Assembly (NCBI GenBank): GCA_030637655.1
Contig: DAOWGI010000063.1
Coordinates: forward strand, 1 to 41,634
DNA length: 41,634 nt
Direction of reading: 5' to 3'
Source: a candidate division FCPU426 bacterium
GTDB lineage: Bacteria > Oederibacteriota > JAAXVQ01 > JAUVAV01
The notes below the pieces were generated by a model, which searched no databases, was not told the DNA's origin, and worked only from the letters and a program-made list of their open reading frames with translations. Of the stretch, positions 1 to 11,463 are shown piece after piece. Every line of letters starts with the position of its first letter. Position 1 is the first letter of the stretch. The position numbers and the translations under genes are program-made.

Positions 1-10
1 CTTTGCTAAA

Positions 11-3000
11 GTGTTTGGGGCATTGAAGGGATATGGTGCCAAGATAAAAGAATTCAGCAGCGGGCTAATAGCCAAATTGACCAGAGGATCATTAAAGAAA
101 ATAGACGAAGTATCCAACGTATTGCCAAAGAATGGAATGTACGCGAGGGTGATGGAGAGTGATTTTGTTGCTAACTTTATTAGCGGTAATGGGAGATTAG
201 GTGGTGGCAAAGAAGTATTTGTTACAGCAGCCGATGATATTGTAGATATTAAGATGCCGAGAGGCTTAGGTGATAAATTAACACTACGAAAATCAAAATA
301 TTTACCCTTTAATAAAGACACATCAGATACAGTGATTGTATTTAAAAAGAATTCTGATAATATTAGTAGTCCGATACAAACATCCCCTAAAAGATGGTTT
401 GGATTTAAAGGGAAAGGCACAACCAAAGGTGGTGCCAGAGAATGGGTAGCTCAGAACGATAACTTGAGTGGCTTACAAAAGCAAGGATTTGAGATTCAGG
501 AAATATATACCTTAGATAAGCAAGGGAGGAAAATACAATGGGATATTGCTGTAAAGGAAAACGGGAAATATACGGTGACCGGTTTCACGGTCTCTGGGCA
601 GAGTGGCAAGAACGCCGGATTAGAAAAAACATTGACAAGATTGCAGTCGGAGATTGGGAACGAGCATATAAATGTAGGAAATGTGGACAGTATTGGTGGG
701 AAAAATATGAAGCAGATGGACACGGGGAACACCCGGTTCTTAGAAAAGTCACCAAAGAAGAACTTATCACCAAATTTCCCACCCTCCGCGACAAAATCTA
801 GCGCCAGCACCCTGAGCCGATCCCTGAGCTTGTCGAAGGGGTCGAAGGGTAAATCCCTTGTCAAAGCCGCCGGCGTAGCCCTGGTCACCGGAGCCTTAGT
901 CGGCGGCACAACCAAAGCAGTGGCCAAATCCGTAGGCACGAATACAGGTATTCGCCCTGAAACAACTCACCCCGCCGAAACCACCAACCAAATCGAATCC
1001 ACCCGCGCCGGTCCCGAACCCGCAGGGGCGAACCTTGTGTTCGCCCGTCAATCCGCCCAACCCGTAGGGGCAACCCTTGCGGTTGCCCAACAATCCGATA
1101 AAACCGTAGGGAACGGTCGCGACCGTTCCCTACAACATGCGGTTCAATCCGCATCATCTGCGATCCAACAATCCACCAAATCCGTCACCACTGAACTCAC
1201 CTCCAAATATCACATCTGGGGCCACATCGCCAAAGTCGCCCCAGAAGTCCGGCAGATGGCCCAGGAATTGGGCATTGAAAAAGAAATGGCCGGTCTGCTA
1301 GAAGGCGCATCACTCGGTGACTTCATGAAAGATGGCATCGTCAATGCCTGGTCCATCATCGGCCAGATCGCCATGAACTTTGTGCCAATCGCTGATCAAG
1401 GCAGTGACATAAGAGACATCGGCGCAGCCATCAAGAACTTGATCAATAATCAAGGCAAAAAACTAGGCGATTGGGGCAACCTCGGATTAAACGGAATAAG
1501 ATTTGTCCCCCTGATCGGCCTCATAACCTTTGGCCCGAAAATATATAAACACGCCGATGAATTCAAAAGCGCCATCAAATCCCTGATAACCAATAACAAA
1601 GCTTTTGCCAAAGTGTTTAAGGCTTTAGAAGGCCAATGGAAAGGTATAAAAGAATTTGCAGCCAATCTAAAATCTAATCCTGTTAAGTTTGCTGATAAAG
1701 TCAAGTTTATGGTTAAGTCACGTTTACGCAAATTCGGTATTCTCAAAATCATAAAGCCTGAGAATGGGTTGTATGCGAGGGTGGTGGATGAAGGTAAGTT
1801 GTTGGAAATATTAGATGGTAAGAAATTATCCTTTGATACTAATGTAAAAACATTTATTGCACCACTGGATGATATAGCAGATGTGCGTACAGGTAAAGAA
1901 ATGGGTAAAAGATGTACATTGTTAAAAATGAATGGTGATCTTAGAAAAGATGGTAATGTAGTAATTGTCTTTAAAATGTCGAAAGAAAATGCTAATAAAG
2001 TAATGGACAAACCAGTAACAACCCATCACAAAGGATTCAAGAATTATGGTCAGGAAGGCGGCAATCTGACTAAAGGCGGCTCCCGTGAATGGGATATGAA
2101 AAATTGCACTTTAGATGAATTAAAAACTCAAGGTGGAGAAATAAAAGAAATTTATAAACTGACGGATAAGGGAGGCAAAGAAATCTTATGGAAACCAACT
2201 GCTGCAACCTCAAAAAAGATGTCCTTGGAAGGTACGGAGGCGATAAAAAGTCAAATAAACAAGAAGATAGAGATTTTGAAATCCTCAGAAAACAAGTTGA
2301 ATTCATCGGGACTAGCAAAACAAGAGATGAAAGTCTTGCCCGATGCAAAGATTGCGGGGAGCTCTGGATCCATACCTATGAAGGCGAAGGACATGAAGAA
2401 CATGCAGTCTACACCAAAATTACCCCCTCCGAAGCCCTCACTCGCTTCCCGGACCTCAAAGACAAAATCTAGCGCCAGCACTCTGAGCCGATCCCTGAGC
2501 ATGTCGAAGGGGTCGAAGGGTAAATCCCTTGTCAAAGCCGCAGGCGTAGCCCTGGCCACCAGCGCCCTGATCGGCGGCACCACCAAAGCAGTCGCCAAAA
2601 TCGTAGGGGCGAATCCACGTATTCGCCCGGAAACAATTCAGCCCGCCGAATCCACCAAACAAATCGAATCCACCCGCGCCGGCCCTGAACCCGTAGGGGC
2701 AACCCTTGCGGTTGCCCAACAATCCGCCCAAATCGTAGGGGCGAATCCACGTATTCGCCCAATGGTTGAATCTGTGAAATCTGTGATCCCATCTGCGAAA
2801 TCCGCAATCAAAGCCGCCCGCGCAGTCGACAAAATCTTCAATCCTGACAATGGCAAATACCAGGGACCGCCGGACAACCTGGAAAACCTCAACCCCGGCG
2901 ACACCTACAAAACCCCCAATGGAGTAGAAATCGAGATCAAAGAAAAATATAAAACTCCAGACGGCGAGGAGCGGATAAAAGGCCGCGTACTACCGAAGGC

Positions 3001-5038
3001 AGAAAAGCAGCAGCCGCAAAATACCGTAGGAGCGCAATGCATTGTGCCTAATAACGCCGGCCCGGAATTGAAAACCGTAGGGGCAACCCGCTTGTCTTGG
3101 CGAAGCTTGGCGAAGACGGGTGCGGTTGCCCAACAATCCGACAACCCCGTAGGGGCACAGCATGCTGTGCCCAATATCGTTGATAAAATCGCAACCTTGA
3201 GCATCATCAAAGAAAGAGTCATTAAATCAGATACTGTTATTAACACCGGAGAAAAACTAAGCGCAGCTCGGGGCAATAAAAAAGCCCAAGCCAATGTGCT
3301 GCTTAAAGATGCACAAAAAGAAGAACGCAAAATCAACAATCTTGGCAGCATTATCCAGGAATTACGGAGTAGTTACCAAAAAGCCGAGACCACCCTGGCC
3401 AAGACCAGCCCGGCATTATATACCGCCATGGTCAAGGTTGCGGAACTACTCGATCAAAAAGCAGTGGCAGGCATGTTTGTCAAAGGCACCACGCCGGAAC
3501 TATTAAAAGCCGTAGCCAACGGTTTGGTTAAAGAAATCGCAAGCATCAAAGCAGGTGTAGAAAAAGGCGAAGGCTGGGCAACAGGCAGGCTGGGAGAAAT
3601 GAAAGCCAGACTGAGCCAGTTAAAGCAGGAAGTGGATAATTACATCAAAGCTAATATCTGGGAAGGCATCGGTCCGGTCGGGAAACTGGCATTAGCCGTA
3701 ACCTGGGGCAGTGAGAAACTGCATGAAAAAGCTGGACAGACAGAAGGCTGGGCAGGAATCGGATTGAAGTTGATTGCTCAGTTCAATCCCGGTAACATGA
3801 TCATGGGAAGCTGGGGGTCATTAACCGGCGGAGAGAAAATTACGATGGGAAGAAAGATAGCCTCGGGTGCAAGTGTTGTGGTAGGAACAGCAGCCATGGG
3901 CTTTACATATCTCAATCCTGCCATATTAGGAATCCAGACCGGATTGATCTTGTCCCAGGAAGCAGCTTATGCTGGGTGCATCAAATCAGGCATGAGTGTA
4001 GAAAAAGCAGAGACCATAAAAGCAGGAATAGGCAGTATAGGATTCCTGATGGTCATGGCCAGTTGGAAGAGCAATCCGGTCAAAGCAGCCAAGCAAGCAG
4101 GCGGCTTGCTCGTAGGAATCAAAGCAGTAGGCAAAGACATGCTGACCAAAAGCTATGCAGCCCGACTGGGTGCGTTCTTTATGATAGAAAAAGCAGCAAA
4201 AGGAACAGCGTGGCTGATAAATGAAAGTTTGGGTGGCGACAAGTACACAAATAATGTTATAAAAGGAACCATAATCGGAATAGGATTCAAATTTGGCGCC
4301 AAACCGGCACAGCAATTCGTGCGGAAGATGATCAGAGAAATCGAGGTGAAATCAATTGCTCTTCAAATCGAGAAAGCAGAAGGATATAGAAGCCCTACTG
4401 GAATGGGCGCCGCCAAACCCGGCATGGACAAAAGAGCAGTTGACCGAGCATTACTCGAAGAAATTACGGGAGTTAAAGGAACAGTTGTTGGGGGCGTTAA
4501 AGGAGCAAAAGTCGTTAAGGCAAAAAGGCACACTGTTAGAGCAGAAGCAGCGAGAAACAGAGCAGAAGCAGCGAGAAACAGAGCAGAAGCAGCGAGAAAC
4601 AGAGCAGAAGCAGCGAGAAACAGAGCAGAAGTTAGAGAATTTAGAGCAGGAGAACGACAAGCTGCTGGACAATTACAACAATCTGCTCAAACAGTACGAC
4701 GTACTGGAAGCCAAGGTGAGAGCCTCGATCAGCGGATAGCCGGATATAGCGCCCAGAACGAAATACTAAGCTTTACAGACAAAACCTTGGGCTATATAGG
4801 TAATCTGGCCAAAGGCTTCAAACCTGAATATCAGAAACACCAACCCGAATCAATCAGACCAAAAATAAATAACACTATCATCACCGGGGCAGCACGTCCC
4901 GGCCTCATCAGCACAACCATGAGTACTATGCGCAATTTCACCACCCCCTGGCGCACCGGTCTAGCCGGGGCAACAGGAGTGGGGCTGGTGATGGGGATAG
5001 GAGACAGGATCAATCAAGACTTGCACGAACGACAATAA
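11..5038 (+). CDS. Giant modular polymorphic-toxin-like protein, probably 5'-partial: two Ntox10-like domains (~122-538, ~1757-2188), pre-toxin TG-like segment (~1361-1520), REP-derived linkers, Gly/Ala-rich hydrophobic C-terminal region
   Basis: 1675-codon open frame with no stop back to nt 2. FAKVFGALKG at the window edge matches internal FAKVFKALEG (offset 1602 nt), so the gene likely starts upstream. Two copies of P-x-NG-x-YARV...F(V/I)xxxDDI...VIVFK...GF...TKGG(A/S)REW. Confidence 0.75.
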   Translation: MFGALKGYGAKIKEFSSGLIAKLTRGSLKKIDEVSNVLPKNGMYARVMESDFVANFISGNGRLGGGKEVFVTAADDIVDIKMPRGLGDKLTLRKSKYLPFNKDTSDTVIVFKKNSDNISSPIQTSPKRWFGFKGKGTTKGGAREWVAQNDNLSGLQKQGFEIQEIYTLDKQGRKIQWDIAVKENGKYTVTGFTVSGQSGKNAGLEKTLTRLQSEIGNEHINVGNVDSIGGKNMKQMDTGNTRFLEKSPKKNLSPNFPPSATKSSASTLSRSLSLSKGSKGKSLVKAAGVALVTGALVGGTTKAVAKSVGTNTGIRPETTHPAETTNQIESTRAGPEPAGANLVFARQSAQPVGATLAVAQQSDKTVGNGRDRSLQHAVQSASSAIQQSTKSVTTELTSKYHIWGHIAKVAPEVRQMAQELGIEKEMAGLLEGASLGDFMKDGIVNAWSIIGQIAMNFVPIADQGSDIRDIGAAIKNLINNQGKKLGDWGNLGLNGIRFVPLIGLITFGPKIYKHADEFKSAIKSLITNNKAFAKVFKALEGQWKGIKEFAANLKSNPVKFADKVKFMVKSRLRKFGILKIIKPENGLYARVVDEGKLLEILDGKKLSFDTNVKTFIAPLDDIADVRTGKEMGKRCTLLKMNGDLRKDGNVVIVFKMSKENANKVMDKPVTTHHKGFKNYGQEGGNLTKGGSREWDMKNCTLDELKTQGGEIKEIYKLTDKGGKEILWKPTAATSKKMSLEGTEAIKSQINKKIEILKSSENKLNSSGLAKQEMKVLPDAKIAGSSGSIPMKAKDMKNMQSTPKLPPPKPSLASRTSKTKSSASTLSRSLSMSKGSKGKSLVKAAGVALATSALIGGTTKAVAKIVGANPRIRPETIQPAESTKQIESTRAGPEPVGATLAVAQQSAQIVGANPRIRPMVESVKSVIPSAKSAIKAARAVDKIFNPDNGKYQGPPDNLENLNPGDTYKTPNGVEIEIKEKYKTPDGEERIKGRVLPKAEKQQPQNTVGAQCIVPNNAGPELKTVGATRLSWRSLAKTGAVAQQSDNPVGAQHAVPNIVDKIATLSIIKERVIKSDTVINTGEKLSAARGNKKAQANVLLKDAQKEERKINNLGSIIQELRSSYQKAETTLAKTSPALYTAMVKVAELLDQKAVAGMFVKGTTPELLKAVANGLVKEIASIKAGVEKGEGWATGRLGEMKARLSQLKQEVDNYIKANIWEGIGPVGKLALAVTWGSEKLHEKAGQTEGWAGIGLKLIAQFNPGNMIMGSWGSLTGGEKITMGRKIASGASVVVGTAAMGFTYLNPAILGIQTGLILSQEAAYAGCIKSGMSVEKAETIKAGIGSIGFLMVMASWKSNPVKAAKQAGGLLVGIKAVGKDMLTKSYAARLGAFFMIEKAAKGTAWLINESLGGDKYTNNVIKGTIIGIGFKFGAKPAQQFVRKMIREIEVKSIALQIEKAEGYRSPTGMGAAKPGMDKRAVDRALLEEITGVKGTVVGGVKGAKVVKAKRHTVRAEAARNRAEAARNRAEAARNRAEAARNRAEVREFRAGERQAAGQLQQSAQTVRRTGSQGESLDQRIAGYSAQNEILSFTDKTLGYIGNLAKGFKPEYQKHQPESIRPKINNTIITGAARPGLISTTMSTMRNFTTPWRTGLAGATGVGLVMGIGDRINQDLHERQ
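538..801 (+). CDS. Nested Imm27-like immunity protein 1 (alternative frame inside the giant ORF)
   Basis: SD AAGGGAGG at 522-529, 8 nt before the ATG. Homologous to 2188..2472 (CC, CxxCGxxW, YExxGHxEHxVxxKxTxxE, FPxLxDKI). Starts exactly where the toxin-like domain ends. Confidence 0.75.
   Translation: MGYCCKGKREIYGDRFHGLWAEWQERRIRKNIDKIAVGDWERAYKCRKCGQYWWEKYEADGHGEHPVLRKVTKEELITKFPTLRDKI
790..1020 (+). repeat. Linker copy A, near-identical to 2461..2691 (offset 1671 nt)
   Basis: GACAAAATCTAGCGCCAGCAC...AAATCGAATCCACCCGCGCCGG shared at DNA level; peptide TKSSASTLSRSLS(L/M)SKGSKGKSLVKAAGVAL...QIESTRAGPEP. Confidence 0.9.
932..1133 (+). repeat. Cluster of four GTAG-type REP-like palindromes in frame within the giant ORF
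   Basis: Elements start at 932, 1022 (GCAG variant), 1064 and 1106. 1106..1133 GTAGGGAACGGTCGCGACCGTTCCCTAC is a perfect 28-nt palindrome. Confidence 0.85.
2188..2472 (+). CDS. Nested Imm27-like immunity protein 2 (alternative frame inside the giant ORF)
   Basis: SD AAGGGAGG at 2168-2175. Same motif set, same relative frame and same position behind the toxin-like domain as 538..801. Confidence 0.75.
   Translation: METNCCNLKKDVLGRYGGDKKSNKQEDRDFEILRKQVEFIGTSKTRDESLARCKDCGELWIHTYEGEGHEEHAVYTKITPSEALTRFPDLKDKI
2461..2691 (+). repeat. Linker copy B, near-identical to 790..1020
   Basis: Direct DNA similarity read by eye. Confidence 0.9.
2603..3172 (+). repeat. Six GTAG-type REP-like palindromes in frame within the giant ORF
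   Basis: GTAGG starts at 2603, 2693, 2735, 3026, 3077 and 3149, each followed by a hairpin (e.g. GGGCGAAT-CCACGT-ATTCGCCC, GGGCAACC-CTTGC-GGTTGCCC, GGGCACAGCATGCTGTGCCC). Confidence 0.85.
4356..4739 (+). CDS. Possible nested coiled-coil protein in the +1 frame of the giant ORF
   Basis: SD-like GAGGTG at 4343-4348, 7 nt before a TTG. Product is E/Q/K/L-rich with heptad character that extends beyond the tandem repeat. Confidence 0.45.
   Translation: MLFKSRKQKDIEALLEWAPPNPAWTKEQLTEHYSKKLRELKEQLLGALKEQKSLRQKGTLLEQKQRETEQKQRETEQKQRETEQKQRETEQKLENLEQENDKLLDNYNNLLKQYDVLEAKVRASISG
4538..4631 (+). repeat. 21-nt tandem repeat, about 4.5 copies (AGAGCAGAAGCAGCGAGAAAC)
   Basis: Perfect copies at 4538, 4559, 4580, 4601 and a partial copy at 4622. 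Reads RAEAARN in the main frame and EQKQRET in the +1 frame. Confidence 0.95.
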
Positions 5039-5062
5039 ATAAATGTAAAAACACAGTGCTTC

Positions 5063-5091
5063 CCGGGACGTTGTTCAATAATACGGTTAGC
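5063..5091 (+). repeat. Transposase-associated short repeat (CCGGGACGTTGTTCAATAATACGGTTAGC)
   Basis: Related copies at 7512-7587 (direct) and 8638-8658 (inverted). Confidence 0.75.
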
Positions 5092-5175
5092 CCCGAAAAA
5101 ACGGGATGGGGATGAGTGAAAGTTTATATAACAGAATGAATAATAATGAATAAAGCAACCATGAGGGAGAATGTA

Positions 5176-7494
5176 ATGAAGTCAAAGAAGAATTATTTAA
5201 TAACATTAGTTGCCATGCTGCTGTTTATGAACATGCCGCTAATCGGAAAATCCGCAGATTCGCAAAATGTTAATCTGATAGGAGAGTTGGTAGGAGGATT
5301 ATCTTGCGATGTGGCTGTTCAAGGCAATTATGCATATGTGACAACGAAAAAAAAACTGAGTATATTGGATATTACCAATCCGGTTACTCCTATTCTGATA
5401 GCTGATTTTAAAACGCTATATTCAATCAATGGCAATAGTGTAGAAGTCAACGGCAATTATGCCTATGTTGTGATTGAAGGTCACGGACGCCTGCAAGTGA
5501 TAAATATTAGCAATCATTCAAATCCGACCGCAGAAGGGTATTATGACACACCCGGGAGTGCTGAAGAGGTGGCCGTAAGCGATAATTATGCCTATGTAGC
5601 GGATGGTTCCAGTGGTCTGCGGGTAATAGATATCAGCATACCATCCGCACCTACAGAAGCAGGGTATTATGTCACACCAGGATGGGCCAAAGGCATATCC
5701 GTCAGCGGGAGTTACGCTTATGTGGCGGATTATGGTAGCGGACTGCGAGTGATAGATATCAGCAATCCTGCAGCACCAACAGAAGCCGGGTATTATAACA
5801 CATCCGGGTTTGCTGAAGAGGTGGCCGTAAGCGGTAATTATGCCTATGTAGCGGATGGTTCCAGTGGTCTGCGAGTGATAGATATCAGCACGGCCGCCTC
5901 ACCCACAGAGGTCGGATATTACGACACTCCGGGATATGCCCATGCCGTGGCTATGAGCGGTAATTATGCCTATGTGGCGGATTATAGTAGCGGACTGCGA
6001 GTCATTGATATCAGCAATCCTGCAGCACCAACAGAAGCCGGTTATTATGACACATCCGGGAGTGCCCGAGGTGTGGCCGTAAGCGGTAATTACACCTATA
6101 TGGCGGATTATGACAGAGGCTTGCGAGTGATTGATATCAGCAATCCTGTAGTACCCGCAGAATCTGGATATTTTAATCCACCAAAAGATTGTCATGGCGT
6201 TGCAGTATCCGGCAATTATGCCTATGCGGCAGATGGTTGGAATGGCTTGCAAGTGATAAATATCAGCAATCCTACAGCACCAACAGAAGTAGGATATTAT
6301 ATTACACCATATTACGCTTGGGATGTTGCAATAAGCGGCAACTATGCATATGTGGCGGATGGTGAAGAAGGTTTACGAGTGATTGATATCAGCACGCCTG
6401 CCTCACCGACGGAGGCAGGGTATTATGACACGCCCGGGTATGCTTATAGCGTGGCCATAAGCGACAACTATGCTTATATGGCGGATAATGATAAAGGCCT
6501 GCGGGTGATTAATATCAGCACGCCTACCTCACCAACAGAAGCCGGGTATTATGATACGCCCTATGCCAGAGGCGTGGCTGTAAGCGGTAATTATGCCTAT
6601 GTGGCGGATGGTTACAGTGGTTTAAGAGTGATTAATATCAGCACGGCCGCTTCACCAACAGAAGCGGGGTATTATGACACGCCCTGTGGAGACGTGGCCG
6701 TAAGCGGCAATTATGCGTATGTGGCGGGTGGTCCCAGCGGCCTGCGTGTGATTGATATCAGCAATCCTGCCACACCAACCGAGGTCGGGTATTATGACAC
6801 GCCCGGGTATGCTTATAGCGTGGCCATAAGCGGCAACTATGCTTATATGGCGGATCATGATAAAGGCCTGCGGGTGATTAATATCAGCACGCCTACCTCA
6901 CCGACAGAGGCAGGGTATTATTATGACACGCCCGGGTATGGGTATGCTTCTTATAGCGTGACCGTAAGCGGGAATTATGCTTATGTGGGCAACGAGGAAG
7001 GAGGTTTTGAAATATATAAATTCACACCGTCTACTCCTACCCCAACCTCAACCCAGACTCCAACTATAATAGTGACCTCAACTATCTCGCCTACACTAAC
7101 CATTACCCCAATCTCAACCCAGACTCCAACTATAACAGTGACCTCAACTATCTCGCCTATACTAACCATTACCGCAACCTCAACACCGACCCCAACCGTG
7201 ACACCTACTCCACAGAGCATCAACACCTTTGGCCGAGAAATCATCGCCTACCCCAACCCGGCTCGTGACAAAGTTACTTTTGCTTTGCAGGAAACCGGAG
7301 TGGATGAAGTTATAATTGAAATCTATAATTTTTCCGGAGAAAAGATAGCACAAATTCAGGAAAATCAACCGGGCCAGGTGCTTACCTGGGAAACAATGGG
7401 TATTGCTCCGGGGATTTATTTATATAAAACAGTAATAAAGGTAAATGGGCAGGAAAAACGGCTGGGTATAAAGAAAATCGCGATTGTTCGCTGA
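5176..7494 (+). CDS. Secreted LVIVD-repeat (beta-propeller) protein with Thr/Pro/Ser linker and T9SS-type-like C-terminal Ig domain
   Basis: Signal peptide; 14 repeats of VAVSGNYAYVADxxxGLRVIDISNP; TPTPT linker; C-terminal AYPNPA...IEIYNFSGE...PGIYLYK...KKIAIVR. Alternative starts at 5146 and 5161. Confidence 0.9.
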   Translation: MKSKKNYLITLVAMLLFMNMPLIGKSADSQNVNLIGELVGGLSCDVAVQGNYAYVTTKKKLSILDITNPVTPILIADFKTLYSINGNSVEVNGNYAYVVIEGHGRLQVINISNHSNPTAEGYYDTPGSAEEVAVSDNYAYVADGSSGLRVIDISIPSAPTEAGYYVTPGWAKGISVSGSYAYVADYGSGLRVIDISNPAAPTEAGYYNTSGFAEEVAVSGNYAYVADGSSGLRVIDISTAASPTEVGYYDTPGYAHAVAMSGNYAYVADYSSGLRVIDISNPAAPTEAGYYDTSGSARGVAVSGNYTYMADYDRGLRVIDISNPVVPAESGYFNPPKDCHGVAVSGNYAYAADGWNGLQVINISNPTAPTEVGYYITPYYAWDVAISGNYAYVADGEEGLRVIDISTPASPTEAGYYDTPGYAYSVAISDNYAYMADNDKGLRVINISTPTSPTEAGYYDTPYARGVAVSGNYAYVADGYSGLRVINISTAASPTEAGYYDTPCGDVAVSGNYAYVAGGPSGLRVIDISNPATPTEVGYYDTPGYAYSVAISGNYAYMADHDKGLRVINISTPTSPTEAGYYYDTPGYGYASYSVTVSGNYAYVGNEEGGFEIYKFTPSTPTPTSTQTPTIIVTSTISPTLTITPISTQTPTITVTSTISPILTITATSTPTPTVTPTPQSINTFGREIIAYPNPARDKVTFALQETGVDEVIIEIYNFSGEKIAQIQENQPGQVLTWETMGIAPGIYLYKTVIKVNGQEKRLGIKKIAIVR

Positions 7495-10376: not shown

Positions 10377-11017
10377 ATACTTGGCAACGTTTTATGCGAA
10401 TGAATCTACCTAACAAGTTGACCATGGGGAGAATTGCTTCAGTACCTCTCTTCGTGGCCTGTTTGCTCTCTGGGAATCTCTGGGGACAATACTTGGCATT
10501 GCTGGTTTTTGTTGCCGCTGCCATATCAGACTATTGGGATGGCAAAATTGCCCGGGAACGGAATTTGGTCACTAATTTCGGACGTATTATGGATCCTTTG
10601 GCAGATAAGCTTTTGATGGCCTCGGCATTTATCTCATTTGTCCAAATGGGTTTTGCCCCGGCCTGGATGGTTATACTGATTATCGGCCGGGAATTTGCGA
10701 TTACCGGTTTGCGTATTTTGGCAGCAGTGCAAGGCAGAGTAATTGCAGCCTCTACTTCCGGAAAACACAAAACCATCTCCCAAATTGTGGCGGTGATTCT
10801 CATTTTGGTCGTCAACAGTGTGGTTGCCTCCTTACAAGCCTGGGTTCCGCCTTGGCAGGAGACACTTCGCGGTTTGGGCGCAGGGGGGAAGGCGATGATT
10901 CATTTTGCTGATTACGCGCCGTATTGGGCTATGTTTATCGTGGCTGGGCTCTCCCTATATTCGGGAGTTGAATATTTGATAAAGAATAGAGAGTTGCTCC
11001 AGGATCCCCATTCATGA
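10373..11017 (+). CDS. pgsA: CDP-diacylglycerol--glycerol-3-phosphate 3-phosphatidyltransferase
   Basis: MNLPNKLT, DYWDGKIAR...FGRIMDPLADK, GREFAITGLR, GKHKT. Confidence 0.95.
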   Translation: MNTWQRFMRMNLPNKLTMGRIASVPLFVACLLSGNLWGQYLALLVFVAAAISDYWDGKIARERNLVTNFGRIMDPLADKLLMASAFISFVQMGFAPAWMVILIIGREFAITGLRILAAVQGRVIAASTSGKHKTISQIVAVILILVVNSVVASLQAWVPPWQETLRGLGAGGKAMIHFADYAPYWAMFIVAGLSLYSGVEYLIKNRELLQDPHS

Positions 11018-11463
11018 AATATTTCCATCTTGTCATAGCAACCGTTTTCGGGGCAGGATATTTTCCCATTGCCTCCGGAACTTTTGGCACGTTAGTGGCT
11101 GTGTTACCTTATTATATGTTGCGCGGAAATGTTTGGGCATATACGCTTGCGACCCTGCTCTGCTTGGTTTTAGGTGTATGGACAGCCACGGCTGTTGAGT
11201 CTATTTTGCATGAAAAAGACTCCGGCAAAATAGTGATTGATGAGGTTGCCGGATATCTTGTAACTATGGCATTTTTGCCCCATCACTGGTTTTATCCCAT
11301 GGCCGGATTTGTTTTGTTTCGTTTGCTCGACGTCTGGAAACCGTTTGGGATTCGCAAGTCGCAGCAGTTGACCGGCGGTTGGGGTGTGATGATTGATGAT
11401 GTGCTGGCCGGCGTGGCGGCTAATTGTATACTTCGCGGACTAAGCTTGTTTTTGACACTTTAA
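11014..11463 (+). CDS. pgpA: Phosphatidylglycerophosphatase A
   Basis: ASGTFGT, DSGKIVIDEVAG, FRLLDVWKP, GVMIDDVLAG. Confidence 0.95.
   Translation: MKYFHLVIATVFGAGYFPIASGTFGTLVAVLPYYMLRGNVWAYTLATLLCLVLGVWTATAVESILHEKDSGKIVIDEVAGYLVTMAFLPHHWFYPMAGFVLFRLLDVWKPFGIRKSQQLTGGWGVMIDDVLAGVAANCILRGLSLFLTL

Follow-up and report, generated by a model that had tools for sequence, protein, structure and literature searches.

The window, i.e. the whole stretch of 41,634 nucleotides of DNA that was analysed here, is contig C82 (positions 1–41634) of a metagenome-assembled genome (G000; 120 contigs, 3.28 Mb, estimated to be 91.6% complete), and the start of the window is the end of that contig. It opens with the 3′ part of a giant gene resembling those of YD-repeat polymorphic toxins, present as one long open reading frame (ORF; the ‘main ORF’) that has no stop codon before the window start and is therefore 5′-open; counted from the GTG at position 11, it encodes 1675 amino acids. 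Within the main ORF lie two modules (B and C), each combining an Ntox10-like toxin domain with a small ORF nested in another reading frame. An earlier reading of the sequence (the original prediction) had claimed that these nested ORFs are Imm27-like immunity genes overprinted on the toxin gene and that several such toxin–immunity cassettes are chained into one polypeptide. The features on which the discussion of this claim depends are the following:

2..5038, plus strand: main ORF, 3′ part of a giant YD-repeat polymorphic-toxin-like gene, 1678 codons.
92..607, plus strand: Ntox10-like domain of toxin module B (Pfam PF15520, 31.7 bits, cutoff 26.8).
522..529, plus strand: Shine-Dalgarno-like AAGGGAGG, 8 nucleotides before the ATG at 538; the main frame reads it as Gly-Arg codons.
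538..801, plus strand: nested gene B, 87 amino acids, −1 frame; Cys4 alpha+beta protein, predicted from the family alignment, structure model, complex score and hhalign comparison to be the immunity protein of module B.
857..913, plus strand: hydrophobic, transmembrane-like main-frame segment LVKAAGVALVTGALVGGTT, directly 3′ of the nested stop (Kyte-Doolittle 1.46).
1727..2242, plus strand: Ntox10-like domain of toxin module C, assigned through its homologues (module B and relatives), with PF15520 giving no direct match.
2168..2175, plus strand: Shine-Dalgarno-like AAGGGAGG, 12 nucleotides before the ATG at 2188.
2188..2472, plus strand: nested gene C, 94 amino acids, −1 frame (ORF list and nested-family alignment).
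2528..2584, plus strand: second hydrophobic main-frame segment LVKAAGVALATSALIGGTT (Kyte-Doolittle 1.33).

The main ORF occupies frame 2 and the ORFs at 538..801 and 2188..2472 occupy frame 1 of the same strand; the ORF list confirms that both lie wholly inside the main ORF and in its −1 frame, as the original prediction had stated. The AAGGGAGG that it had placed before each nested ORF is found at 522–529 and 2168–2175, and the motifs that it had described as common to both products (CC, CxxCG, W, GH.EH.V..K.T..E, and FP.L.DK) are confirmed in alignment A1. At both nested ATGs (538 and 2188), the TG and the following G form a main-frame Trp codon. The third frame is closed, with 8–10 stops per module.

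A tblastn search of the genome with the products of the window identified a further frame, of 8540 codons, on the minus strand of contig C8, which reaches the contig end and contains a third homologous module (module A). Located at the start of that contig, module A likewise contains a nested ORF, whose product is 63% identical to that of nested C. The chaining of cassettes in one polypeptide frame is thereby upheld, with at least three modules in the genome (two in the window and one on C8), and the scan for more modules beyond the window, which begins at a contig end, has yielded one. The C8 frame carries a periodic YDxxGR-like motif, and NCBIfam TIGR01643 (YD_repeat_2x) matches one of two 600-amino-acid pieces of it at 27.4 bits (cutoff 15.8); Pfam found no family, and no RHS repeat, in the whole 8540-amino-acid frame or in three such pieces. 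The last part of C8 is a repeat of the stretch found before a pre-toxin region, and C82 starts within such a region; judged from this repeat order, C8 and C82 probably adjoin, with a gap of about 170 codons between them. Logan contigs reach 113–164 nucleotides upstream of window position 1.

The same arrangement is found in other genomes. A scan covering one genome per species detected the nested family in two further metagenome-assembled genomes, at loci L006 (an uncultured bacterium) and L007 (labelled Elusimicrobia), and the L006 and L007 genomes together with 401 genomes of the phylum of L007 provided additional loci in genomes G100, G103, G362, G382, and G486. Six-frame hmmsearch with two profiles resulted in 13 full toxin-domain matches—the two modules of the window, L018, L006, L007, L016, L017, and L032–L037—in seven genomes (G000, G099, G100, G103, G362, G382, and G486) of at least two phyla. 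All 13 toxin modules are followed by one to three nested-family copies, each of about 90 amino acids, with four cysteines (Cys4), in the −1 frame, and all 16 nested-family ORFs lie wholly within a main ORF that continues past them. The main ORFs range from 962 to 1082 codons in G100 and comprise at least 4588 codons at L032. Fifteen nested ORFs start with ATG and one with GTG; each start overlaps a main-frame TGG, and each is preceded, 5–12 nucleotides upstream, by a GGAGG/GGGGTG-like motif. A hydrophobic main-frame segment follows the overlap in about 10 of the 13 modules. Further downstream, three G100 proteins have C-terminal GxSQG hydrolase-like regions, after which lipoprotein genes follow, and the L032 protein matches the Tle3 phospholipase effector family at 28.6 bits (cutoff 27).

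The nested family was found in none of 60 close relatives and in none of 98 other genomes searched from the phylum of G000. A word-indexed search of 5.8 billion proteins with alignment A1 gave 44 candidates, none with E ≤ 0.01, and a metagenome scan for the family gave only one short contig (L008). Across these surveys, the distribution of the cassette is sporadic, as would be expected of a mobile cassette.

Which of the two frames carries the coding signature can be read from the overlap itself. Modules B and C are 38–41% identical in the nested frame and 22–23% identical in the main frame over the same DNA; for modules A and C the corresponding identities are 63% vs 43%, with 26, 20, and 42 differences at nested codon positions 1, 2, and 3. 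In a wider comparison of eight nested ORFs from three genomes (28 pairs), amino-acid identity was higher in the nested than in the main frame in every pair, and the summed differences at nested positions 1, 2, and 3 were 1132, 1054, and 1417, with position 3 the largest in 27 pairs and tied in one. Coding DNA typically has a higher GC content at codon position 1 than at position 2 (GC1>GC2), and this phase tracks the nested frame at all eight loci; read in the main frame, the same DNA has its lowest GC content at position 1. Just upstream, the pre-toxin and toxin regions of A and C (324 codons) show an ordinary purifying pattern in the main frame (73, 36, and 132 differences at the three positions). 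These comparisons indicate that protein-level selection changes frame at the overlap and that the main frame is there only kept open, a claim of the original prediction that identity, substitution position, and GC phase all bear out.

The openness of both frames was assessed by synonymous recoding of each reading (5000 recodings each). With the nested protein fixed, the probability of an open main frame was 0 for module A, 0.005–0.019 for B, and 0.0006–0.0016 for C; with the main protein fixed, that of an open nested frame was 0.0002, 0.0018, and 0.0002, respectively. Logan contigs of three sequencing runs (X1–X3), all from one cold-seep study, agree with the window over 112..826 and 1538..2531 with 0 differences and 0 gaps, and the first indel reported between them and the window does not occur before position 4915; assembly frameshifts are therefore unlikely. 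None of the six runs listed as carrying the sequence is an RNA run. In the same independent contigs, a real stop after the toxin domains, such as ordinary separate genes would have, was looked for and none was found, nor was any indel or stop variant across either module. A sigma-70 promoter scan of positions 1–5300 gave 7 sites vs 7.2 expected and none on the plus strand before either nested ORF, a result that is uninformative for this phylum.

The assignment of the toxin domain to an Ntox10-like family holds by profile: PF15520 (gathering threshold 26.8 bits) matches module B at 31.7 bits and its homologues L006 and L007 at 30.8 and 40.0 bits. Scored within the whole ORF, module B reaches 26.7 bits, just below the cutoff. 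For the two domains of the window, the profile check thus succeeded directly with module B alone; module C has no direct PF15520 match and is recognised through the domain profile (alignment A5, E 7.7e-66). The PF15520 matches span profile positions 81–183 of 193, and canonical relatives end at 193. In all 13 modules the toxin domain is internal, with the ORF running on for 400 to more than 2000 codons, so that the C-terminal position given for Ntox10 toxins by Zhang (2012; PMC3482391) is not found here, though YD repeats are present. The model of toxin B (predicted local distance difference test, pLDDT, 74.3) places the last strands, E147–154 and E160–167, inside the overlap with the nested gene. 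Foldseek found nothing for this model at E ≤ 1e-3; the VIA wide structure search gave Z scores of up to 5.5, with a top 30 consisting, by entry titles, mostly of ADP-ribosyltransferase (ART)/NADase-fold proteins, several of which are Rhs or type VI secretion system toxins solved with immunity proteins. Of the residues considered for a catalytic set of the R-S/T-E type, R19 and T111 are invariant and E117 is present in six of seven sequences (alignment A5); P94 is likewise invariant. The domain is likely, by a weakly supported structural resemblance, an NAD-using enzyme of the ART fold.

No Pfam profile matches the nested family above its cutoff. In a HMMER search of 1.84 billion representative proteins, 29 matched at E ≤ 1e-3, mostly of 77–100 amino acids. 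Three of these (P0001, P0010, and P0004) have tandem domains, with two copies in two of them and five in the other, and one, the L008 protein, has an N-terminal membrane part. On the 1175-nucleotide L008 contig, the nested-family domain forms the C-terminus of a 271-amino-acid protein (134–949) with a membrane-like N-terminal part; the +1 frame is open over the domain to the contig end (645–1175), and a toxin domain upstream is absent. At L035 (reverse-strand index 10591–11166), about 1.5 kb past the end of the main ORF and outside any long frame, there is a stand-alone gene that contains two nested-family domains. Multi-copy immunity domains are described as the ‘polyimmunity protein’ pattern by Zhang (2012; PMC3482391), and the L035 gene, P0001, P0010, and P0004 fit this pattern. 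The model of nested B (pLDDT 84.1; predicted template modelling score 0.71) is an alpha+beta structure that matched no known fold (Foldseek best E 0.22; VIA wide best Z 5.1, to a DcpS domain), which does not by itself make the fold new.

Imm27 is named as the primary immunity partner of Ntox10, with the motifs ‘D, GGxP’, by Zhang (2012; PMC3482391), and the nested family adjoins an Ntox10-like toxin domain in 13 of 13 modules, as would be expected of an Imm27 neighbour. Among the 401 genomes of the phylum of L007, the Pfam Imm27 profile identified six true Imm27 genes, none of them at nested loci. When the nested family was compared with these six by hhalign, the two aligned over 45 columns with a probability of 92.9% (E 3.7e-7), pairing nested WE.LYRC..CGQYW with Imm27 WE.LYRDP.DGRYW. 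Where true Imm27 (alignment A6) has RDPxDGRxW and HGGGPP, the corresponding columns of the nested family read C..CGQ[YL]W and GH.E. The ESM Atlas lists an Imm27 cluster at a feature score of 0.89, which is a lead only.

Complex prediction connects the two products of module B. Toxin B and nested B obtained a complex score of 0.80 (0.83, 0.79, and 0.80 in individual runs), and the best of three controls obtained 0.01. Of 80 solved complexes, 58 attained this mark, as did 2 of 110 mismatched pairs. Contacts agree between runs to at least 78%, the partner has a pLDDT of 85 or more, and the predicted interface takes in the invariant toxin residues P94 and T111 and the near-invariant E117. Binding of toxin B and nested B is thus supported by modelling.

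At three of the six true Imm27 loci (L038–L040), the upstream ORF ends in an Ntox10 domain (81–100 bits, with L040 reaching the last profile position), and its terminal AAA-TGA overlaps the Imm27 start codon (ATGA), which places Imm27 in the −1 frame. This canonical Ntox10–Imm27 pair shares with the nested arrangement the toxin family, a link to YD/RHS-type repeats (Zhang 2012; PMC3482391), and a remotely homologous partner that likewise sits at the toxin end in the −1 register. The two differ in that the canonical toxin domain is C-terminal and stops at ATGA, whereas the nested loci read TGG/ATGG at that place and the frame crosses the partner gene into further domains; and in that canonical Imm27 has D..D where the nested partner, lacking GGxP and scoring below the Pfam Imm27 threshold, has CC and CxxC. 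If, in the canonical ATGA stop/start overlap, the stop TGA became TGG (Trp), the toxin frame would read on, and both the −1 frame relation and the conserved Trp would be explained. By this comparison of junctions, the nested arrangement probably arose from the canonical one. At L042 (1375–1877, minus strand), a true Imm27 gene has ATT for the expected ATG, and the toxin frame is unstopped at the junction and open almost to the Imm27 end; this locus may represent a step from the ATGA-type to the nested form, or may be in decay.

In our preferred reading, the probability of which we put at about 0.72, the spacer after each internal toxin domain of a multi-toxin protein is overprinted by an immunity gene, the nested ORF, that is translated independently. 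This ORF would encode a small Cys4 protein of the cytoplasm; translation would begin at the Shine-Dalgarno sequence and ATG of the nested ORF inside the toxin mRNA, and the protein would bind and block the Ntox10-like domain encoded directly upstream. The main frame, unstopped after the toxin domain, would cross the immunity gene one base out of register, and its reading of the overlap would provide the last beta-hairpin of the toxin, a Ser/Thr/Lys/Pro-rich spacer, usually a hydrophobic segment, and then further modules, namely more Ntox10-like units in G000 and lipase-like domains in other genomes. Since the frame reads on in this manner, toxin–immunity cassettes could sit inside one giant multi-toxin protein. 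We infer, in sum, that both frames are translated and that the nested protein binds and neutralises its toxin.

Several observations weigh against this reading. The immunity role is predicted from position, remote homology, and a model-based complex score. The calibration of this score holds only roughly here, as toxin B and nested B were modelled with our own alignments (A5 and A4, respectively). The ART-fold assignment of the toxin, drawn from low Z scores (≤5.5), is weak. The Pfam Imm27 profile (PF15590; gathering threshold 27.3 bits) has no match at E ≤ 0.1 in G000 and weakly matches only 2 of 23 nested-family members (best E 0.0056), and the nested family is without the ‘D, GGxP’ motifs of Imm27. 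The predicted Imm27-like character therefore stands as remote homology (hhalign, 92.9%) and falls by Pfam threshold and motifs; by profile comparison, the nested family is most aptly called a divergent Cys4 sister of Imm27, outside Imm27 by Pfam criteria. In the whole 1678-codon ORF, GC-rich parts also hold stop-free alternative-frame runs of 129 and 142 codons, lengths reached in 4–8% of 300 recodings, and in genomes of high GC content a second frame that is open says little by itself (P = 0.445 at L017 and 0.05 at L007). Such long chance runs mean that the evidence lies not in openness alone but in homology, position, start signals, and coding signature. Nested-type toxins have, by eye, about 10–12 more residues before the Trp than canonical ones, so that the path from ATGA to ATGG fits the frame logic and not the exact position. 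Finally, one of the HMMER matches, a protein of 607 amino acids (P0022), has a toxin-like and a nested-family domain in a single frame, so that the two domains do occur fused and a nested-family domain can be made in other ways than by independent initiation. The order in P0022 is an Ntox10-like domain, a nested-family domain without the CC motif, a hydrophobic segment, and an AHSQG hydrolase-like end; its single frame implies that, compared with the nested genes, the frame changed twice in a compensating manner, and it is possibly a cis-inhibited or decayed variant.

Among competing explanations, the one that fares best, though we regard it as improbable, is that the nested protein binds the toxin as a chaperone, adaptor, or activator for folding, holding, or export and not as an immunity protein. 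A predicted complex denotes contact and not inhibition, an internal toxin domain is unusual for polymorphic toxins, and the nested protein has no known fold match, all of which would suit such a role. Set against these points are the remote homology to Imm27, the described partner of Ntox10; the tandem multi-domain forms and the stand-alone two-domain gene with their polyimmunity pattern; and an interface situated on the conserved toxin residues P94, T111, and E117.

Still less probable is that the modules are separate orphan cassettes, with read-through unused, the long frame tolerated or produced by recent fusion, and the downstream modules silent or internally started. Rhs and contact-dependent inhibition loci do carry arrays of orphan cassettes, and the overlap, as read in the main frame, shows poor conservation. 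Yet the main frame is open through all 16 nested ORFs in the seven genomes despite divergence to about 30% identity, and it stays open over about 300 more codons of linker. The GTAGGG sites of the hairpin repeats in the giant ORF (17 on C8 and 7 in the window) all fall, 24 of 24, in the one codon phase that reads Val-Gly, which implies that these hairpin elements are in frame within coding DNA. Additionally, downstream parts are under purifying selection or contain domains (the Tle3 match at L032, 28.6 bits, and the GxSQG ends of three G100 proteins).

We see very little room for programmed −1 frameshifting from the toxin frame, which would produce a toxin–inhibitor fusion ending at the nested stop. 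P0022, with its toxin and nested-family domains in one frame, is what such a process might resemble, and Shine-Dalgarno-like sequences can stimulate frameshifting, as in dnaX; but the start codon is at the same place in 16 of 16 nested ORFs and is followed by a conserved N-terminal M-x-x-C-C, nested-frame stops lie a few codons upstream of the ATG, an X XXY YYZ slippery heptamer between Shine-Dalgarno sequence and ATG was not found by eye, and stand-alone and multi-domain versions of the family exist. An artefact of assembly frameshifts, or an accidental frame left open by main-frame or RNA constraints, might be suspected in a 120-contig metagenome-assembled genome with a window starting at a contig break in a repeat and with long chance runs in its GC-rich parts, but is largely refuted by the indel-free contigs of three further runs, by the same arrangement in six other genomes from other assemblies, and by the coding signature, confident fold, and HMMER matches to called proteins that back the nested frame.

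A bolder extension of the preferred reading, i.e. of the overprinted immunity gene, is that overprinting is an adaptive design; we offer it tentatively, at odds somewhat short of even. The stop-to-Trp change would let whole cassettes be chained into giant multi-warhead toxins, with each antidote co-made and inseparable from its toxin by recombination. The antidote would be made from the same mRNA beside the emerging toxin domain, and the first 18 or so codons of the overlap would be structured in both frames, as a beta-hairpin of the toxin and as the CC metal-site motif of the antidote. If this is true, one stretch of DNA encodes parts of two interacting folded proteins, and the hairpin was possibly born de novo by overprinting.

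Bacterial genes that are completely nested on the same strand and whose function is shown or strongly supported are rare. The comS gene inside srfAB of Bacillus subtilis is a small gene with its own start, out of frame and on the same strand, within a giant multi-module ORF. Its layout resembles that of the nested genes, but comS encodes a regulator functionally unrelated to its host gene, whereas the nested gene has as its predicted target the domain that directly precedes it in the host ORF, recurs in each module, and is conserved across phyla. In the spanin genes Rz/Rz1 of phage lambda, a complete gene is nested in another frame of a functionally linked gene, and the products act together in lysis. 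The pair considered here is likewise nested and functionally linked, with products proposed to interact; Rz1, however, overlaps a small gene in its +1 frame and is cooperative, whereas here the pair is proposed to be antagonistic and the host ORF measures thousands of codons. Orphan toxin–immunity arrays 3′ of rhs and cdiA consist of separate ORFs, often without a start. They share with the present loci a row of modules, each after a conserved pre-toxin segment that could serve recombination, and differ from them in that here one continuous frame carries immunity genes that are overprinted and not intergenic. A literature search for nested or overprinted immunity genes found none for toxin–immunity systems, though examples given only in supplementary files could escape it, and the accessible parts of Zhang (2012; PMC3482391) and of a preprint on giant genes (10.1101/2023.11.21.568195) do not mention such an arrangement. 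By comparison of the loci, the conserved overprinted immunity-like gene is real, and what it represents is a known kind of system—a polymorphic toxin with immunity—in a new gene arrangement.

The remaining features of the giant gene and of related loci are listed here:

1017..1140, plus strand: GC-rich hairpin repeats (GTAGGG...CCC) inserted in phase; inter-module linker.
1202..1726, plus strand: conserved pre-toxin region of module C (SKYHIWG...KPENGLYARV), 61% identical to C8 over 547 amino acids.
2801..5038, plus strand: C-terminal 745 codons of the main ORF, with Gly/Ala-rich hydrophobic stretches and a 21-nucleotide tandem repeat.
L007 7519–8166; L017 about 3061–3582 and 3586–4062; L016 4386–5066 (minus strand): small lipoprotein genes of G100.

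Neither the pre-toxin region of module C nor the C-terminal 745 amino acids of the main ORF match a Pfam or NCBIfam family above cutoff. Hairpin repeats of the form GTAGGG(G/A)...CCCTAC occur at window positions 923–1140, 2594–2760, and 3072–3196 and throughout G000; the word GTAGGGGC is present 616 times in the genome vs about 100 expected, and 303 perfect hairpins have a stem of at least 7. Similar in-frame palindromic elements are known from other bacteria. The read depth of run X1 peaks at 553 over 1045–1218. The 21-nucleotide tandem unit has five copies at 4517–4642 (repeat family D3; three exact over 42 nucleotides), which the main frame translates as RAEAARN repeats. Further alternative-frame ORFs within the main ORF (3796–4221 and 4350–4736) were taken as chance products of GC-rich or repetitive DNA. 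A 127-amino-acid ORF with a TTG start (4356–4739, plus strand), in the +1 frame over the tandem repeat and coiled-coil-like in its EQKQRET repeats, has a run length seen in 4% of recodings and is probably due to chance. The next gene (5146–7494, plus strand) encodes 782 amino acids with a signal-like N-terminus, about 14 ...SGNYAYVAD..GLRVIDIS... repeats, a Thr/Pro-rich stretch, and a beta-rich C-terminal tail. The G100 lipoprotein genes, which lie 3′ of the hydrolase-like C-termini, have a lipobox-like ...AGC/IGC and a common DNDP.Y motif; their products may be immunity proteins of the lipase-like domain.

The 16 independent-looking copies of the nested gene, together with the simple origin proposed for them (ATGA to ATGG), offer material with which selection on dual-coding DNA can be tested. 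Where a gene caller disallows large overlaps on one strand, immunity genes inside giant toxin genes will be missed, and surveys of ‘orphan toxins without immunity’ as well as toxin/immunity ratios may be biased as a result. Indeed, the giant proteins of uncultured phyla may hide more nested genes.

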